IMG/VR virus record: IMGVR_UViG_2713896902_000003
Span: 1-31,452 of that record
Source of the DNA: a virus
Lineage: Duplodnaviria > Heunggongvirae > Uroviricota > Caudoviricetes
DNA: 31,452 bases
Reading direction: 5' to 3' (one strand)
Part shown: in pieces, positions 1,422 to 19,068 of the stretch
How the letters are laid out: every line of letters begins with the position of its first letter
Numbering within the stretch: the first letter of the stretch is position 1
Made by a program: the position numbers and the translations under genes
The notes under the pieces: model-generated
The model's input: the letters and a program-made list of their open reading frames with translations, nothing else
What the model was told of the DNA's origin: nothing
Database searches by the model: none

Positions 1422-3755
1422 TTAAAAATCAGCCGGATTCGGGATCAGTTTTTGCCAGATTGCTGAAACTTGTTTTGCTTGGTGACGGGCGTCATCCAGT
1501 GCATTGTGGGGCACACCTTCGAATGGAATAGCCATTCTGACATCAAAGCCAATGGAATTTCCCAGTTCAACAATTGTGCGTACATCGCGATCGTTGCAGT
1601 AACGCCACGGGCAGGGGAGTCCCTGTCGTTCATATGAACGGCGTAAAATCACGTTGTCGAAATTGGCTCCATTTCCCCAGACCTGAACAAAAAATTCGCA
1701 GGAGTTTTCCGCAATAAATTCCCGCAATTGCAGCAGAGCATCATCTAACGGGATTTCATCGGTCAGAATGGCAGATTGCGCTTCGCGTGATTGTTTCAGC
1801 CACCACTTTATTGTTTGTCTGTCGATGATTCCGCCAGCAGTTTCCAGATCGATAGCTTTACTGAATTCAGGCCCCATATCTCCGGTCTGCGGATCGAAAA
1901 ATATTGCGCCTATTGAGATAATCGTGGCGTCGGGATTTTTTCCCATTGTTTCCAGGTCGATCATCAGGTGGCGCTGCATTTTGCTGGTGGATGTATTAAT
2001 TTGATGGTCGTTCACCTTAATTATGGAATTTGCCGTTTCGCCAGTTTTATGAGCGCTATCGTGGTGCTGAGCGCTGCCAGCGTTCTCCTTGTGCAGATGT
2101 TCAGCGCCTTCCATTTCCTCCGGATCTTTTTCCTGAGATTCATCCAGATTTTCTTCATCGAATGTTTCCTGGTATGTTGCGTTGCCCATCACTGGGCCAC
2201 AATCAGGGCAGTTGCCGCCGCCAGTCTGACCGCAGGCGGTGCAGGTTTTTTCTGATTCCTGTCGTGTCTCTGACTCGTTTTGTCGCGCATTTTGACTGTT
2301 TTGTTCAGCTTTTTGCTGGCTCTGGTAAACTGAATCGCAAGTCTGGATCCCATCAACCCATTTCGGATCATTCGGGTCGCTAATCCCTTCAACAAATTCT
2401 CCGCGACAGGCAGCCAGCACTTTGTCTGCATCGACAGAATTTTTGGGCGGAATGTTTTTCCGTGCTTCATGGAGTTCTGCCCGTAGTTCCTGATATTTCG
2501 CATCAACAGAATTTACCTGTGGCTGAGCATCCATCGACTGCGTGTCCTGATGATGTTCAGTTGTATCCGGTTCCGCTGTTTCAGGCGTTGCCTGTTTATC
2601 TTCCAGGATATCTTTTTCCGGTGTATGTCGTGCAGCAGCAAGAGTTTCCTTGCTGGGGTTCTCGTGATCAGTCTCCGTTAAGTGGGCGTTGATATACTCC
2701 TGAAGGCGTCCCGGGTAGAGATAAAGTTCAGGGTGAGCACTTCGGATAAGTGCAAAATTCGCGGCGCGGGAATAATCCAGAATACCCGGGGTTGCGCGAA
2801 GTGCTGCGGACCATTCTTTGAACGGACTTTCTTTCTTCCGGACGACTTCTTTTGCGCGACGATAAACGCTGCCCGGGATTTCATAAATATTAAAATCAAT
2901 CGGAAGTGTGGCCGCTGCAATCTCCACATCCAGTGTATCGAGGGTGTGTACTAAATTCGGATTGCGATCGGTTTTGTTCCCACCGCCAGCATTAGCACCG
3001 GAAGCCGTGCGGGTGATGCGTGAAACACGATTTCCTTTCATCCACTCTTTTGTCAGCAGACCACGATCGGTGTAGTCGGCGCCCAGGTATGCTTCGAAAA
3101 AAGCAGTTATCAGTCCCAGATCTGAATTACCAGGATTAGGGAAAACTTTGTCAGTGTCACGAACCAGTTTGTGGAGATCGCGAATCTCCAGCGGTTTGAG
3201 TTGCGCTGCTTTATTTGAGATGGCCAGCGCTGTAACTGCGGGGAGTTTTTCATCCTGTGTGTTATGTAATGCGCGCAGTTCTTCCCGTGAAACGTGCGTT
3301 ATCGGTTTTTCGCTGCTGTGCTGTGCCAGCCAGCGAACAGGCAGAATCTGACCTGAAATCGGGAGTAGCATATTCTCCTCAATCTCAGTCATATCTTCGC
3401 CGTTGACGTTGGTATTGTCAGTGCTGGCTGGTTTATCCTGAACAGAGGGGGAAGGGGCGATAAATACCATTGTGATGCCATCTTCCCCGCCTTTTTCATA
3501 GCGGTTGCAGAATTCAGTATCAAACACGCCTTCTGGCGGAAGGTCGTCAACAACGGGCAAATTGACGCGGACGGGTTTTTTAAAGTCGTCCTCATCATAA
3601 TTGTTATCATCCATTGCGGTAATACAGCGGGAGACAGCAACAGATAATTTTTTTGCTGTAGTCCAGAAAAAACCGCCTTTGATGCCGAGACGTTTTCTGA
3701 CTTTGTCATTTTTTGCTTCGCAATATAGTGCAAATTCTTCTTTATCAGTGCTCAT
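1422..3755 (-). CDS. Putative exonuclease, 777 aa; C-terminal DnaQ-like (DEDD) 3'-5' exonuclease domain, N-terminal two-thirds uncharacterized
   Basis: Long ORF; C-terminal ~190 aa carry exonuclease motifs (MIDLETMG Exo I-like D-x-E, later HNALDDA with His/Asp); a four-Cys cluster [16 protein letters not shown] lies upstream of the nuclease domain. Sits where lambda exo or Rac recE lies; related prophage proteins are often annotated exodeoxyribonuclease VIII. Confidence 0.6.
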
Positions 3756-4380: not shown

Positions 4381-4788
4381 TTTAAAAAGGGCGGACATCA
4401 GCCGGACTTCAAGAAAAAACTGATGCCGCCAAAGGCTCCGTCGTTAACACCCGACATGGATATGTTGTGGCGGGGTTGTCACTTAAGCGTATGGTCAGCC
4501 TGACAACCCGGTGTCCTCAACGGGGAAGGAGTAGCCCCGCCATACTTACCGCCGCGCCATTTCGCGGATTACCACAACCGGAAGCGCACGGTCGACGAAA
4601 ATTTAACGACAGACCATTTATGAACTAACAGCCTCGTCGTGCGCTTTCGCGTTATGCCCTGACTTTTCAGGGAAAATTAACCAGTGGTAAACTGGTGCTG
4701 CCGGATGCTCACCCGTGTCCGGCGCATGCCCTCCACCTCCCCCGTGGAGAAATCCTTAATTACCAACCTTAGCTTCGTTGGTTAGCTA

Positions 4789-5007: not shown

Positions 5008-5194
5008 ACTGATTCCTCGCAGTGCTGTTTCCCCTTAACGCCGGGGTGGCGGAACAAAAACCTGCTGCATAGTTAAAGTTGAACCCCGCCGTCATGTTCA
5101 TATGCCTCGGGCTGGCTACTTAACCCCTGACCACTGCTTGGTAACTCGAAGTATTGCCCGGCGTTCTGTGGGGCGGGGTGGGTTGGTATGAAAT

Positions 5195-5245
5195 AAAGAA
5201 TACCCACGGGTATCTAAAAAGTAAATACCCATGGGTAACTTTTTG
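5195..5245 (-). promoter_or_regulatory. OL-like operator pair (TACCCACGGGTA 5201-5212; TACCCATGGGTA 5226-5237) overlapping a candidate leftward PL promoter
   Basis: Two 12-bp palindromes of form TACCC-N2-GGGTA, 25 bp centre to centre, just downstream of the repressor gene 3' end; on the reverse strand TTACCC and TAGATA hexamers with a 16-nt spacer overlap them. Confidence 0.55.
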
Positions 5246-5278
5246 GGTGTCTTAACTGGTGACTGGTTGTTTGGTGAG

Positions 5279-5698
5279 TTATGATGCGTTTTGTGTTTTC
5301 TTTTTACGGATTTCTTCGTAGATCATATTGTAATACTGTTTTTTCTCTTCAAGAGTTTTTAGTAAGTTATCCGCTTCACTTTCTGGCAGTTCGTCTAAGA
5401 GATCTAAAAAAATACGTTGTCGTGGCGTTAGAACCCTTGTTTCATAATTGGAGGCTGCGTTCGTTGATGATGAAACGATACCATCCATCCATCCTCGGGG
5501 TAACCCAAAGGACTCTTCGATAATCTCCACCATATCATCAGCGATCCGTTTTTTTCCTTTTTTCCCCTCTGGATACAACATTCTTGATACATAAGAAGGC
5601 TCGCGACCGATCTTTCTGGCCACGTTAACCGCTTTACCATCGCATTTCTCATCACGAATTTTGATGAGTTGCTGTCGTCTAAATTCATATTTGTCCAT
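5279..5698 (-). CDS. Prophage repressor, DicA/RacR-like (HTH, no LexA-type peptidase domain), 139 aa
   Basis: Divergent from a Cro-like gene with operator palindromes on both sides; N-terminal HTH-like segment (AVNVARKIGREPSYVSRML); C-terminal LTPRQRIFLDLLDELPESEADNLL resembles the DicA C-terminus as recalled; too short for an S24 autopeptidase domain. Confidence 0.65.
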   Translation of the reverse strand: MDKYEFRRQQLIKIRDEKCDGKAVNVARKIGREPSYVSRMLYPEGKKGKKRIADDMVEIIEESFGLPRGWMDGIVSSSTNAASNYETRVLTPRQRIFLDLLDELPESEADNLLKTLEEKKQYYNMIYEEIRKKKTQNAS

Positions 5699-5733
5699 AG
5701 GTAAATAATAGATGCGATTACCGCAAGGTAAAC

Positions 5734-5774
5734 AACCCGTGGGTATTGACTTTTGTTTACCTATGGGTATTCTT
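5734..5774. promoter_or_regulatory. OR-like operator pair (AACCCGTGGGTAT 5734-5746; TACCTATGGGTA 5758-5769) with candidate rightward PR promoter (TTGACT 5746-5751, TATTCT 5768-5773)
   Basis: Same TACCC/GGGTA half-sites as the OL pair, in the 101-bp gap between repressor and cro-like genes; -35 and -10 hexamers with 16-nt spacing overlap the operators about 27 nt upstream of the cro-like ATG. Confidence 0.55.
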
Positions 5775-5799
5775 TTGCCGTGTTTACTAAGGAGTAGCT

Positions 5800-6081
5800 A
5801 TGGAAGAATTAAGAATGTTTCTCAATTCTCTTTCGTCAGATGAACAGCGTATGTTTGCATGTGAGTGTAGTACTAGCATCGGTTATCTAAGAAAGGCATT
5901 GAGTAAAGGTCAAGTGTTAGGGGCATCGTTATGTGTCCTTATTGAGCGAGCCAGTAATGGTGAAGTTACACGTCAGCAACTAAGGCCTTTTGATTGGATG
6001 AATATTTGGCCCGAGCTGGAAGACACCAAAACGTTAACACAACCACTTTCTAGGAGCTTGATTCATGAAAATCAAGCATGA
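5800..6081 (+). CDS. Cro/YdaS-like HTH transcriptional regulator, 93 aa
   Basis: Small ORF divergent from the repressor; RBS GGAG upstream; HTH-like segment FACECSTSIGYLRKALSKGQ; followed by a YdaT-like gene as in Rac-type prophages. Confidence 0.6.
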   Translation: MEELRMFLNSLSSDEQRMFACECSTSIGYLRKALSKGQVLGASLCVLIERASNGEVTRQQLRPFDWMNIWPELEDTKTLTQPLSRSLIHENQA

Positions 6082-6490
6082 GCACATCCGCATGGCGATG
6101 AATGCCTGGGCGCGTCCTGATGGCGAAAAAGTTCCGGCAGCTGGAATAACCCGGGCTTATTTTGAGTTGGGTATGACGTTTCCTGAACTGTATGACGACA
6201 GCCATCCGGAAGCCCTGGCTCGCAATACCCAGAAAATTTTCCGCTGGGTAGAGAAAGACACCCCTGATGCTGTTGAAAAAATTCAGGCGCTGTTACCAGC
6301 GATCGAAAAGGCAATGCCACCTCTGCTGGTGGCCCGAATGCGCAGCCACAGTTCAGCCTGGTTTCGGGAGCTGGTAGAGACGCGGGAACGACTGGTGAGA
6401 GACGCTGATGATTTTGTCGCAGTGGCGATCGCAGGTTTCAACCAGATGAATCGTGGTGGCCCGGCAGGAAATGCCGTGGCGGTACATTGA
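6065..6490 (+). CDS. YdaT-like protein, 141 aa
   Basis: Overlaps the upstream cro-like gene; N-terminus MKIKHEHI matches my recollection of E. coli Rac YdaT; the YdaS-YdaT pairing is consistent. Confidence 0.55.
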   Translation: MKIKHEHIRMAMNAWARPDGEKVPAAGITRAYFELGMTFPELYDDSHPEALARNTQKIFRWVEKDTPDAVEKIQALLPAIEKAMPPLLVARMRSHSSAWFRELVETRERLVRDADDFVAVAIAGFNQMNRGGPAGNAVAVH

Positions 6491-9315: not shown

Positions 9316-9594
9316 ATGACGCACAATACTAAACCTCGCAATTCTGATAATATCGCCGTCTTTGCCAACAGGCACGGGCGGCATTCACATGCATTCAAAT
9401 CTGACTGGTTCCAGCATGACCCATGCACTGAGGAACAGGCCGAATGGCTGATTCAGAATTACCGCAGACGTGGGTACGAGTTTCAGAAAGACCTCAGTCT
9501 TGATTTCCGACACTGGATAATTTCCGTCAGGCTTCCTTATTCCGAACGCCCACCGCGTCCGTCCCGCACATTCCAGCAACGGATCTGGAGGTAA
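9316..9594 (+). CDS. Hypothetical protein, 92 aa
   Basis: ORF from track; stop TAA is 1 nt before the GTG start of the downstream DUF968-like gene, which has its RBS GGAGG inside this ORF (translational coupling). Confidence 0.5.
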   Translation: MTHNTKPRNSDNIAVFANRHGRHSHAFKSDWFQHDPCTEEQAEWLIQNYRRRGYEFQKDLSLDFRHWIISVRLPYSERPPRPSRTFQQRIWR

Positions 9595-10654: not shown

Positions 10655-11032
10655 ATGACTGAACGCATAGAATTTGTTTTGCCTTATCCGCCTACGGTGA
10701 ACACCTACTGGCGCCGCCGTGGTGGCACATATTTTGTATCAAAATCCGGAGAACGTTATCGCCGTGATGTGGCGCTGATTGTTCGTCAGCAACGGCTGAA
10801 ATTAAACCTGTCCGGAAGGCTGGCAATCAGGATTATTGCAGAGCCACCGGATAAGCGCCGCCGCGACCTGGACAATATCCTGAAGGCACCACTGGATGCA
10901 CTGACACATGCAGGACTGCTTATCGACGATGAGCAGTTTGACGAAATCAATATAGTGCGCGGTCAGCTCGTTCCTGGTGGTCGGCTGGGTGTGAAGATTT
11001 ACGAAATTACAGGTGATAACGATGGCGCGTGA
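10655..11032 (+). CDS. rusA: Crossover junction endodeoxyribonuclease RusA (Holliday junction resolvase), 125 aa
   Basis: Matches RusA by recall: N-terminal [16 protein letters not shown] and the catalytic-region motif [27 protein letters not shown]; usual position just upstream of Q. Confidence 0.9.
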
Positions 11033-11408
11033 TATTCAGCAGGTTATGGAGCGGTGGGGGGCATGGGCTGCAAACAATCATGAAGATGTGTCCTGGGCAT
11101 CAATCGCTGCTGGTTTTAAAGGATTAATTCCGTCGAAAGTGAAATCACGCCCTCAGTGTTCTGATGATGATGCAATGATAATTTGTGGCTGTATGGCCCG
11201 GTTGAACAAGAAAAATCAGGATTTGCACGATTTGTTGGTGGATTATTACATAGGTGGAATGACTTTTATGGGGCTGGCACGAAAGCATGGGTGTTCGGAT
11301 ACCTGTATTGGCAAGCGCCTGCAGAAAGCTGAAGGGGTTATTGATGGCATGTTGATGATGCTTGATATCCGACTGGAGATGGACAGATACGTAGAACGAA
11401 TCATGTAG
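11022..11408 (+). CDS. Late-gene antitermination protein Q-like, about 128 aa
   Basis: Track ORF 11013..11408; ATG at 11022 preferred. Located immediately upstream of a promoter plus intrinsic terminator (PR'/tR' arrangement) and downstream of rusA; Cys/His-containing middle region ([12 protein letters not shown]...HGCSDTC). Confidence 0.7.
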
Positions 11409-11412
11409 GAGC

Positions 11413-11442
11413 TTGACCAGACACATTGTCCGGGGCTATATT
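11413..11442 (+). promoter_or_regulatory. Candidate late promoter PR' (TTGACC 11413-11418; TATATT 11437-11442)
   Basis: Near-consensus -35 and -10 hexamers with an 18-nt spacer, 5 nt after the Q stop codon and about 60 nt upstream of an intrinsic terminator. Confidence 0.5.
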
Positions 11443-11504
11443 CCTCACGCGCCAGCAAAATCTGGCGTCGGGATTAGGAACCCCGGATAGAGACCGCGAC
11501 AGAC

Positions 11505-11526
11505 ACACGCCGCGAGCGTGTTTTTT
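11505..11526 (+). terminator. Intrinsic terminator tR' candidate (ACACGC-CGCGA-GCGTGT plus T6)
   Basis: 6-bp GC-rich stem, 5-nt loop, followed by TTTTTTATT; read directly. Confidence 0.6.
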
Positions 11527-11689
11527 ATTGTCGTATGCACGCGCACATCTGAATTATGGTGGGGCGTATGGGGGAGCTGAAAAGCTCGCCGGTTGGTTTC
11601 CCGGTAGTTCCTAACCCTGTACGTCTCACCACCCGATGATTAGGAACCTGACGGTGGTGATGGTTTAGAAACCACCAGAGGGCGTCATT

Positions 11690-12277
11690 ATGACAACTCA
11701 AATTTCTGTTGAAACTCTCTCCCCGATCACCCATAACCAGATTCCTGTTATTACCACCGAACTTTTGGCGCAGTTGTACGGTGCTGAAGTTAAGAACATT
11801 CAAAATAACTACGCCAGAAATGCTGAGCGCTTTATTGAAGGAAAGCATTTTTTCAAAGTGGCTGGCGATGCCCTGAAAAATTTGCGGGTAGCTTTAAACT
11901 ACTCACAAAATTTGCAACCATCTTTAAGAGGGTTACAAATTTCCCCGAAAGCCCGCTCGCTCATACTCTGGACAGAACGCGGCGCAGCCCGCCACGCAAA
12001 AATGCTCGAAACCGATCAGGCGTGGGAAGTATTCGAAAAACTGGAAGACTGTTATTTCAGCCAGAAACAGCCACTAGCAACACAAAACTCACCCACCGAA
12101 AATGATGGATGCGCATTACTGATCCACTTCGATAAACACGGTCAGGTCGACTTTACGGAAAAAGTACCCGCCGATGCGATGGTATGCACTCTGGAACGGT
12201 TCAAATTTTATCTGGAACAACGCGGCTGGATCGTTGCCCGTAAAGAGCAACTGGTGGAACGATTGATGAGGCTTTAA
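11690..12277 (+). CDS. ORF6N-like (phage antirepressor N-terminal DNA-binding domain) protein, 195 aa
   Basis: First ORF downstream of PR'/tR'; RBS AGAGGG; N-terminal region (IPVITTELLAQLYGAEVKNIQNNYARNAERFIEGKHFF...ILWTERGAARHAKML) resembles ORF6N/Bro-N type domains as recalled. Confidence 0.5.
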   Translation: MTTQISVETLSPITHNQIPVITTELLAQLYGAEVKNIQNNYARNAERFIEGKHFFKVAGDALKNLRVALNYSQNLQPSLRGLQISPKARSLILWTERGAARHAKMLETDQAWEVFEKLEDCYFSQKQPLATQNSPTENDGCALLIHFDKHGQVDFTEKVPADAMVCTLERFKFYLEQRGWIVARKEQLVERLMRL

Positions 12278-18477: not shown

Positions 18478-19068
18478 ATGGCTCTAAAAATCGAATATTT
18501 ACCAGTCGGTAAGCTGCTCAGATACGCCAAAAATTCACGGACTCATTCAGATGAGCAAGTTGATCAGTTGGTGAACAGTATCCGTGAGTTCGGTTTCACT
18601 AATCCTGTGCTGATCGATGAAAAGAATGAACTGATTGCGGGGCATGGGCGGCTTGCAGCAGCCGAAATACTGGAAATGGATAAAGTTCCGGCGATTCGGT
18701 TGAGTAACCTTTCTGAAAAACAGAAGAAGGCTTACAGGATTGCAGATAACAAGCTGGCCTTAAATGCTGGCTGGGATATGCAGCTTCTGGCCGAAGAAGT
18801 CAAAGAGTTAATGGATGACGATTTCGATATTGATCTGCTTGGGTTTAATGATGCGGAGCTTGACGAAATGTTAAGCGATGAACAGCCGCAGGAAGAAGAC
18901 GATAATTCTTCTCCTGTTGTTCAAATTAAGTACCTGGCTATTGATAAAGAACGTATTCCCGCGACGGATATGGAAATTGCATTGTTGCTGGATGTTTATC
19001 GTCAGTACCACGACGCGCATGAAACGCATGAGGGATTTGTTCAGTATCTTGCTAATGGTTGCAAGTAA
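18478..19068 (+). CDS. ParB-like nuclease domain protein, 196 aa
   Basis: N-terminal ParB/sulfiredoxin-type motif (ELIAGHGRLAAAE); acidic C-terminus; common immediately upstream of terminase genes. Confidence 0.7.
   Translation: MALKIEYLPVGKLLRYAKNSRTHSDEQVDQLVNSIREFGFTNPVLIDEKNELIAGHGRLAAAEILEMDKVPAIRLSNLSEKQKKAYRIADNKLALNAGWDMQLLAEEVKELMDDDFDIDLLGFNDAELDEMLSDEQPQEEDDNSSPVVQIKYLAIDKERIPATDMEIALLLDVYRQYHDAHETHEGFVQYLANGCK

Follow-up and report, generated by a model that had tools for sequence, protein, structure and literature searches.

Candidate operators of a short chimeric repressor in a probable lambdoid prophage immunity region

A gene for a 139-aa repressor in the Caudoviricetes record IMGVR_UViG_2713896902_000003 of IMG/VR is flanked on both sides by paired palindromes, which raises the questions of which protein reads these sites, what kind of switch they build and how such a switch could be induced. 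We analysed the whole 31,452-nucleotide stretch (positions 1 to 31,452 of the record, here called the window), and conclude that the locus is very probably a lambdoid prophage immunity region, in which five 12-bp TACC-N4-GGTA-type palindromes would serve the 139-aa repressor as operators and, if lambda is a guide, Cro as well. As in lambdoid CI/Cro switches, divergent repressor and cro genes share operators at the repressor's own promoter (PRM) and the rightward promoter (PR), and a second operator set lies at the leftward promoter (PL).

Operators and promoters around the repressor gene

The right (OR) and left (OL) operator sites, the promoters and the genes between and beside them are arranged as follows.

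5025-5197, minus strand: untranslated leader of the PL transcript, about 170 nt up to ydfC
5197-5225, minus strand: PL promoter, from sequence reading; −35 TTTACT (5225-5220), 17-nt spacer, −10 TATTCT (5202-5197)
5201-5212: candidate operator OL1, TACCCACGGGTA; its promoter-proximal end overlaps the PL −10
5226-5237: candidate operator OL2, TACCCATGGGTA; adjoins the PL −35
5279-5698, minus strand: repressor, 139 aa; residues 1-72, helix-turn-helix (HTH) DNA-binding domain; residues 73-88, disordered linker; residues 89-138, DicA-like helical hairpin
5705-5732, minus strand: PRM promoter, from the promoter scan; −35 TTTACC (5732-5727), 16-nt spacer, −10 TATTAT (5710-5705)
5719-5730: candidate operator OR3, TACCGCAAGGTA; overlaps the PRM −35 and spacer, centred at −26.5 from the PRM start
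5734-5745: candidate operator OR2, AACCCGTGGGTA; adjoins the PR −35, centred at −41.5 from the predicted PRM start
5746-5773, plus strand: PR promoter, from the promoter scan; TTGACT-16-TATTCT
5758-5769: candidate operator OR1, TACCTATGGGTA; covers the PR spacer and the first bases of the PR −10
5800-6081, plus strand: Cro-type regulator, 93 aa, divergent from the repressor; 71% identical to Cro of phage mEp043

A search of the 31.4 kb for TACCCNNGGGTA with at most one mismatch returned four matches against 0.37 expected, all four being OL1, OL2, OR2 and OR1, and none of 100 shuffles attained this number. OR3 surfaced once the search was loosened to two mismatches, at a distance of 15 bp from OR2. 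The exact TACC-N4-GGTA core occurs five times in the window against 0.12 expected, four of the five in the immunity region; OR2 is one base short of this core, and the lone match elsewhere, at 18500-18511 inside the structural gene region, is probably due to chance.

A preliminary description of this DNA had listed four TACCC-N2-GGGTA palindromes in pairs about 24 bp apart on both sides of the repressor gene. The pairing holds, with centre-to-centre distances of 25 bp in the left pair and 24 bp in the right pair, and three of the sites lie where they had been placed, but the fourth occupies 5734-5745, one base to the left of 5735-5746, and the palindrome is perfect in the left pair only, each right-hand site carrying one mismatch. 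The same description counted two sites per operator, which is correct for OL but not for OR, where a conserved third site had been missed; since OR3 overlaps the −35 of the repressor's own promoter, we regard OR as tripartite and only OL as a two-site operator. No third OL site is detectable 15 bp beyond OL2, a position holding only a single GGGTG half-site.

The proposed overlap of the sites with divergent promoters is supported, as both PR and PRM were called by the promoter scan and the PL module repeats the PR module in inverted orientation. The intergenic region between repressor and cro measures 101 bp and contains the three OR sites, which overlap both promoters. On the other side of the repressor gene, a repeat finder matched the OL/PL region to OR/PR as an inverted repeat through arms of 25 nt (80% identity) and 20 nt (90% identity), and the geometry of PL relative to OL1 and OL2 equals that of PR relative to OR1 and OR2, placing the predicted transcription start of PL near 5190. 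The PRM −10 lies 7 nt from the repressor ATG (5698) with no Shine-Dalgarno sequence, and the repressor mRNA is therefore predicted to be leaderless, for which lambda cI and paaR2 are precedents (PMC8630535).

The PL leader occurs at more than 90% identity in 3670 of 5426 E. coli genomes, beside many different immunity regions; it is 90.7% identical to the racR-ydaG intergenic region of Rac and also follows directly after PL in phage Tritos. The conserved leader block starts at the predicted PL −10 and start site, which provides independent support for a promoter at the left site pair, and the leader marks the left boundary of the immunity-specific segment, as a classical immunity region would predict. 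Considered as a structured RNA, the leader folded no better than shuffled sequence (z = 0.42), and this idea was dropped.

Based on this arrangement, we propose that repressor dimers would bind the operators through the N-terminal HTH domain, OR1 with OR2 and OL1 with OL2 (each pair 24-25 bp apart) being filled together and cooperatively. The outer site of each pair would cover the −10 and the inner site would adjoin the −35, thereby shutting PR and PL; silencing of PR would stop cro, ydaT and the replication genes, and silencing of PL would stop the ydfC-dicF-dicB operon. When bound at OR2, whose centre is at −41.5, the repressor may stimulate PRM from the position where lambda CI activates its own PRM, and occupation of OR3 by surplus repressor or by Cro would lower expression of the repressor gene. 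Oligomerisation is probably the task of the DicA-like C-terminal domain.

Conservation of the sites with the DNA-binding domain

We compared 44 loci, comprising the window, phages mEp043 and CharmingMan, and 41 genomic loci from Enterobacterales, Aeromonas, Neisseria, Burkholderiales, Xanthomonadales and other Beta- and Gammaproteobacteria that were fetched by alignment of the repressor DNA-binding domain. All were scanned for TACC-N4-GGTA with at most one mismatch, counting offsets from the repressor ATG. Against a background rate of 4.7e-4 per position, three sites recur at fixed offsets.

−72/−73: OR1, in 40 of 44 loci
−47/−48: OR2, in 29 of 44 loci
−32/−33: OR3, in 36 of 44 loci

The comparison argues strongly for the operator assignment, and the conservation at −32/−33 identifies 5719-5730 as, by all sequence indications, a genuine OR3. 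The outer half-site of OR2 is almost always degenerate across the family, the window included. Aligned on the ATG, the family reads tTTACCnnnnGGTAa, 9-10 nt, TCAA joined to TACCnnnnGGtt, aTT joined to TACCnnnnGGTA, 8 nt, tAnAAT, 6-7 nt and ATG, which makes the PR −35, the PRM −35, the PRM −10 and the leaderless spacing features of the family rather than of the window. Downstream of the repressor operon, a PL pair spaced 25-26 bp is present in 30 loci, in the form of TACCnnnnGGTA joined to TTGACn and TACCnnnnGGTA joined to TAnnnT, so that a counterpart of OL1 is kept in 30 of the 44. In 35 of the 43 comparison loci the neighbouring, divergently oriented gene encodes a Cro homologue, and YdaT is not linked to this cassette of repressor, operators and Cro. 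The window shares every element of the mEp043-type module, namely the MDKYE...EPSYVSRMLY domain, the divergent Cro, sites at −72, −47 and −32, and the PL pair.

The recognition helix EPSYVSRMLY is near-invariant and co-occurs with the invariant TACC/GGTA core, and in the two loci with a different recognition helix (L042 and L046) TACC-N4-GGTA sites are absent. In these two loci, distant homologues from Advenella, TACC-N12-GGTA-like palindromes such as cataccgcctcttgatgcggtatg precede the repressor ATG, suggesting that the half-site is kept but used in another dimer geometry. In an E. coli copy of the region with 96.7% identity, the changes within sites are confined to the central two bases of OL1 and OR2. 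The motif had earlier been taken to define the immunity specificity of this prophage; as the TACC-N4-GGTA core is common to the whole family, it is insufficient for this on its own. Whether half-site position 5 is C or T showed a suggestive association with residue 31 of the repressor, but as the association is not clean, this residue was rejected as the determinant.

Two variations among the comparison loci stand apart. Four Klebsiella loci (L009 and L012-L014), whose repressors are 233-aa S24 forms, keep OR1 and OR3, have no recognisable OR2 and carry a conserved tttgctatatttt in its place. A wider palindrome, TTACCTG-N10-CAGGTAA, is found about 20 bp upstream of OL2 in mEp043 (L002, 3553-3576), L015, L017, L021 and L023 and is absent from the window; it could be a differently spaced OL3 or a terminator.

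The left pair also admits another description, as its two palindromes can pair in RNA and may chiefly form a Rho-independent terminator of the repressor transcript rather than an operator.

5201-5237, minus strand: OL hairpin from the terminator scan, OL1 and OL2 forming a 16-bp RNA stem, then UUCUUUAUUU

The scan scored this hairpin with a stem of 16 pairs, a loop of 5 nt and the tail TTCTTTATTT, located 41 nt past the repressor stop codon, its folding energy is −27.3 kcal/mol (z = −6.0), and blocking PRM read-through into the toxic dicF/dicB operon would be biologically sensible. However, any two similar palindromes give rise to a hairpin, so that the structure alone is weak evidence, and the T-rich tail is the −10 and start region of PL. 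The same pair with the same −35/−10 overlap is present in 30 loci, where it often lies 0.7-2.5 kb past the repressor with other genes between and usually lacks a T tail, and the inverted-copy relationship between OL/PL and OR/PR likewise speaks for an operator. We therefore regard it as very unlikely that the left pair is chiefly a terminator. Because terminator character is not a feature of the whole family among the comparison loci, we treat the hairpin as a possible local bonus and not as the primary function of the operator; as such a second, local function, and not as the sole explanation, the terminator is plausible, and the hairpin possibly ends repressor transcripts before they read into dicF/dicB. 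An Rfam scan of the region gave only a sub-threshold microRNA match to the OL hairpin, which is spurious.

The identity of the binding protein needs separate consideration, since the palindromes might be bound mainly by the Cro-type protein, which has a sub-threshold Pfam match to YdaS (25.5 bits against a cut-off of 30) and belongs to PHROG 35 ('transcriptional repressor'), or by another regulator such as YdaT, with the 139-aa protein binding elsewhere. As Cro co-occurs with the sites, the comparative data alone cannot separate it from the repressor domain. However, the PL pair is distant from cro and always downstream of the repressor gene, every site-bearing locus was retrieved with the repressor DNA-binding domain as the query, and the sites are missing where the repressor recognition helix differs. 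The site of YdaT, TTGATT-N6-AATCAA (PMC9986795), is a different one, and its perfect copy in the window lies separately at 6058-6075. Moreover, CI and Cro use the same operators in characterised switches. Taking these observations together, binding mainly by a protein other than the repressor appears highly improbable, and the 139-aa repressor is retained as the probable ligand, joined, by analogy with lambda, by Cro. That the palindromes cluster by chance and regulate nothing has only the shortness of the motif in its favour, and its probability is negligible given the shuffles above and the recurrence of the sites in unchanged positions across Beta- and Gammaproteobacteria, which effectively refutes it.

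The repressor as a chimera and its route of induction

An AlphaFold2 model of the repressor (mean predicted local distance difference test score 82.5) comprised an HTH domain of four helices and a helical hairpin, with a disordered linker (residues 64-91) between them. Its top Foldseek match was Rep of Salmonella phage SPC32H, a repressor controlled by an antirepressor (Rep-Ant complex, PDB 5D50), followed by C-proteins and HigA-type XRE domains. A sequence search of the PDB gave weak matches to Z-alpha domains (E about 0.07), which we judged spurious because the model and the Foldseek matches indicate an XRE-type HTH. PHROG 5736 ('transcriptional regulator') matches the protein end to end.

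Database searches retrieved two types of relative. A few proteins of about 137 aa are similar along the entire length, whereas the majority are S24/LexA-family phage repressors of 221-242 aa that are 75-85% identical over residues 1-75 only, the homology breaking off in the linker directly after LPRGWMDGI. These longer relatives carry PF00717 behind the same DNA-binding domain; the 139-aa repressor has neither PF00717 nor the Ser/Lys dyad and cleavage site of S24 proteins. The lack of a LexA-type cleavage domain suspected in the preliminary description is thus borne out, as a Pfam search with the protein gave no match and the chain ends at residue 139, and the repressor falls within the short Gifsy-type class (about 135-150 aa) that has no such domain.

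The further assignment to a DicA/RacR type was tested by alignment and applies to one part of the protein. Homology to the DicA C-terminal domain covers residues 89-134 (BLASTP: 33% identity over 46 aa, E = 1e-7; hhalign of the C-terminal domain: 97% probability, E = 1e-10), so that the DicA-like segment makes up the last 50 or so residues. The NCBIfam DicA model (NF007257) matches residues 83-137 only, with E = 2e-5 and 24.3 bits against a cut-off of 101; the protein thus has the DicA-type C-terminal helical domain but is not a full-length DicA. RacR of E. coli K-12 shows no similarity to the repressor, no alignment being better than E = 2.3, and the DNA-binding domain is of the mEp043 type. 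Judged from these alignments, the repressor is a modular chimera of an mEp043-type DNA-binding domain and a DicA-type tail.

Given that it lacks an S24 domain, RecA-stimulated self-cleavage of the repressor cannot induce the prophage, and its inactivation by an antirepressor would be the likely route. Short non-cleavable repressors of Gifsy phages are inactivated by antirepressors (PMC3121763), and Rem is the antirepressor of DicA (PMC10448788). The window contains a candidate in the following gene order.

11013-11408: antQ, the Q antiterminator gene, directly before the IsrK/C4-type RNAs
11436-11636, plus strand: IsrK/C4-type antisense RNA elements, upstream of the candidate antirepressor
11690-12277, plus strand: candidate antirepressor, an ORF6N-domain protein of 195 aa (Pfam ORF6N; PHROG 2379 'anti-repressor', E = 1e-91)

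In Rfam, IsrK, the C4 antisense RNA and its a1/b1 targets all scored above their gathering thresholds. The gene order matches the antQ-isrK-anrP layout of Gifsy-1 (PMC4825925). The order of antQ, IsrK/C4 and ORF6N is also that of P1 immI.

Several observations weigh against parts of the proposed switch. PL agrees with the consensus at 8 of 12 positions, which is under the cut-off of the scanner, and hence was not called by it. OR2 and OR3 are 15 bp apart and thus on roughly opposite faces of the helix, which makes lambda-like cooperativity between them unlikely and leaves the role of OR3 uncertain. Among the papers searched, we found none with these operator sequences in a phage context and none on the operators of mEp043. 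The link to the antirepressor is drawn solely from family annotation and gene layout. No Rem homologue is encoded at the syntenic open reading frame (9316-9594), and tblastn against the whole window gave a best E of 0.23; LexA boxes number 13 one-mismatch matches in the window against 8.9 expected, which is not significant, and include no perfect box. With no Rem homologue and LexA-box matches at chance level, antirepressor-based induction appears plausible, though unproven.

Genomic setting and comparison with known switches

The neighbourhood agrees with the Qin- and Rac-like prophage context suggested before, comprising a ydfC-dicF-dicB left operon, the Rac-type leader and a YdaT-type cII gene (6065-6490, next after cro). 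To the left of the immunity region lie ydfC-like and dicB genes and a DUF1482 gene, the left operon being 83% identical over 1.2 kb to ydfC-dicF-dicB-ydfD of Qin. A sub-threshold match to the DicF small RNA at 4389-4437 on the minus strand (31.9 bits against a gathering score of 48, E = 4.6e-5) sits between ydfC and dicB, as synteny with Qin predicts. A perfect TTGATTCATGAAAATCAA at 6058-6075, at the end of cro and overlapping the ydaT start codon, is the sole exact match in the window; it is an exact fit to the published YdaT operator, TTGATT-N6-AATCAA (PMC9986795), which occupies the same position in CP-933P. Further left, a 777-aa protein (1422-3755, minus strand) has an Exonuclease VIII (RecE-like) region at its N-terminus and an Rv2179c-like 3'-5' exonuclease domain at its C-terminus.

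The immunity segment, 5195-5800, is present at 95-97% identity in 822 of 5426 complete E. coli genomes, where the repressor is annotated as 'hypothetical protein' and the region would control the dicF/dicB cell-division-inhibitor operon. The architecture is that of a textbook lambdoid switch, and the general picture of such switches is unchanged; the set of repressor, operators and Cro is unstudied yet very widespread. Pfam has no model for the DNA-binding domain of the repressor, and the operator core and spacing are almost fixed across Beta- and Gammaproteobacteria. We tentatively suggest, at somewhat short of an even chance, that the repressor domain, operators and Cro form one ancient cassette, in which repeated exchange has given the repressor different sensor halves, namely S24 self-cleaving, DicA-like or other short tails. 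In that case, phages with this cassette in common may repress each other or tell one another apart by the inner four bases alone, and a single recombination in the linker could rewire the switch between SOS cleavage and antirepressor induction. What makes the system of interest is how broadly distributed and how rigid the cassette is, how common it is in E. coli and how cleanly the domains have been exchanged. The operators, promoters and chimeric build of the repressor would allow correct annotation and the prediction of homoimmune prophages, and they offer a natural system for testing a single DNA-binding module in combination with different induction modules.

Similar to lambda, the locus has divergent PRM and PR with three shared operators and a second operator set at PL, paired sites 24-25 bp apart with the outer over the −10 and the inner at the −35, and a repressor mRNA that is leaderless (by prediction here). 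Lambda OR2 lies near −42 of PRM, as does OR2 here. By contrast, the operators are 12-bp TACC-N4-GGTA sites rather than 17-bp ones, OR2 and OR3 are 15 bp apart instead of 23, two OL sites are detectable rather than three, the repressor lacks the S24 self-cleavage domain and a YdaT-type protein takes the place of cII.

The isolated phage that comes nearest is mEp043 (PV340537, JQ182734), which is lambdoid and whose operators are uncharacterised. Identity between its cI and the repressor is 66% over residues 1-86 and 76% over residues 1-72, its Cro is 71% identical, its OR has sites at all three offsets (−72, −47 and −32) and its OL pair is spaced 25 bp. The mEp043 cI differs in being 228 aa long with an S24 peptidase domain, the phage carries lambda-type N and cII genes, and its half-sites are mostly TACCT/AGGTA, whereas those of the window are TACCC/GGGTA.

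The closest characterised analogue with a YdaT-type cII is the PaaR2/YdaS/YdaT system of CP-933P in E. coli O157:H7 (PMC8630535, PMC9986795), which likewise is a lambda-like bistable switch with a leaderless repressor gene and PL elements that copy PR, and whose published YdaT site recurs perfectly at the cro/ydaT junction here. Its repressor and operator sequence are unrelated, CP-933P having GTTTAGTAA-type 18-bp repeats.

DicA of Qin and the Gifsy-type repressors GfoR, GfhR and GtgR (PMC3121763, PMC10448788) resemble the repressor in length, at about 135-139 aa, and in having no cleavage domain. DicA further shares the C-terminal 50 or so residues by homology and a PL operon that is 83% identical, but its DNA-binding domain is not that of the present repressor, and its antirepressor Rem has no homologue in the window. 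Reminiscent of this division, CI of Tritos (OV696610) is also 139 aa long, has a C-terminal domain 72% identical to that of the repressor and is accompanied by the same PL leader and a ydfC-dicF-dicB operon, whereas its DNA-binding domain is unrelated and its operators are GTACT-type repeats. That Tritos shares the tail but neither the DNA-binding domain nor the operators indicates that the two halves of these repressors assort independently.

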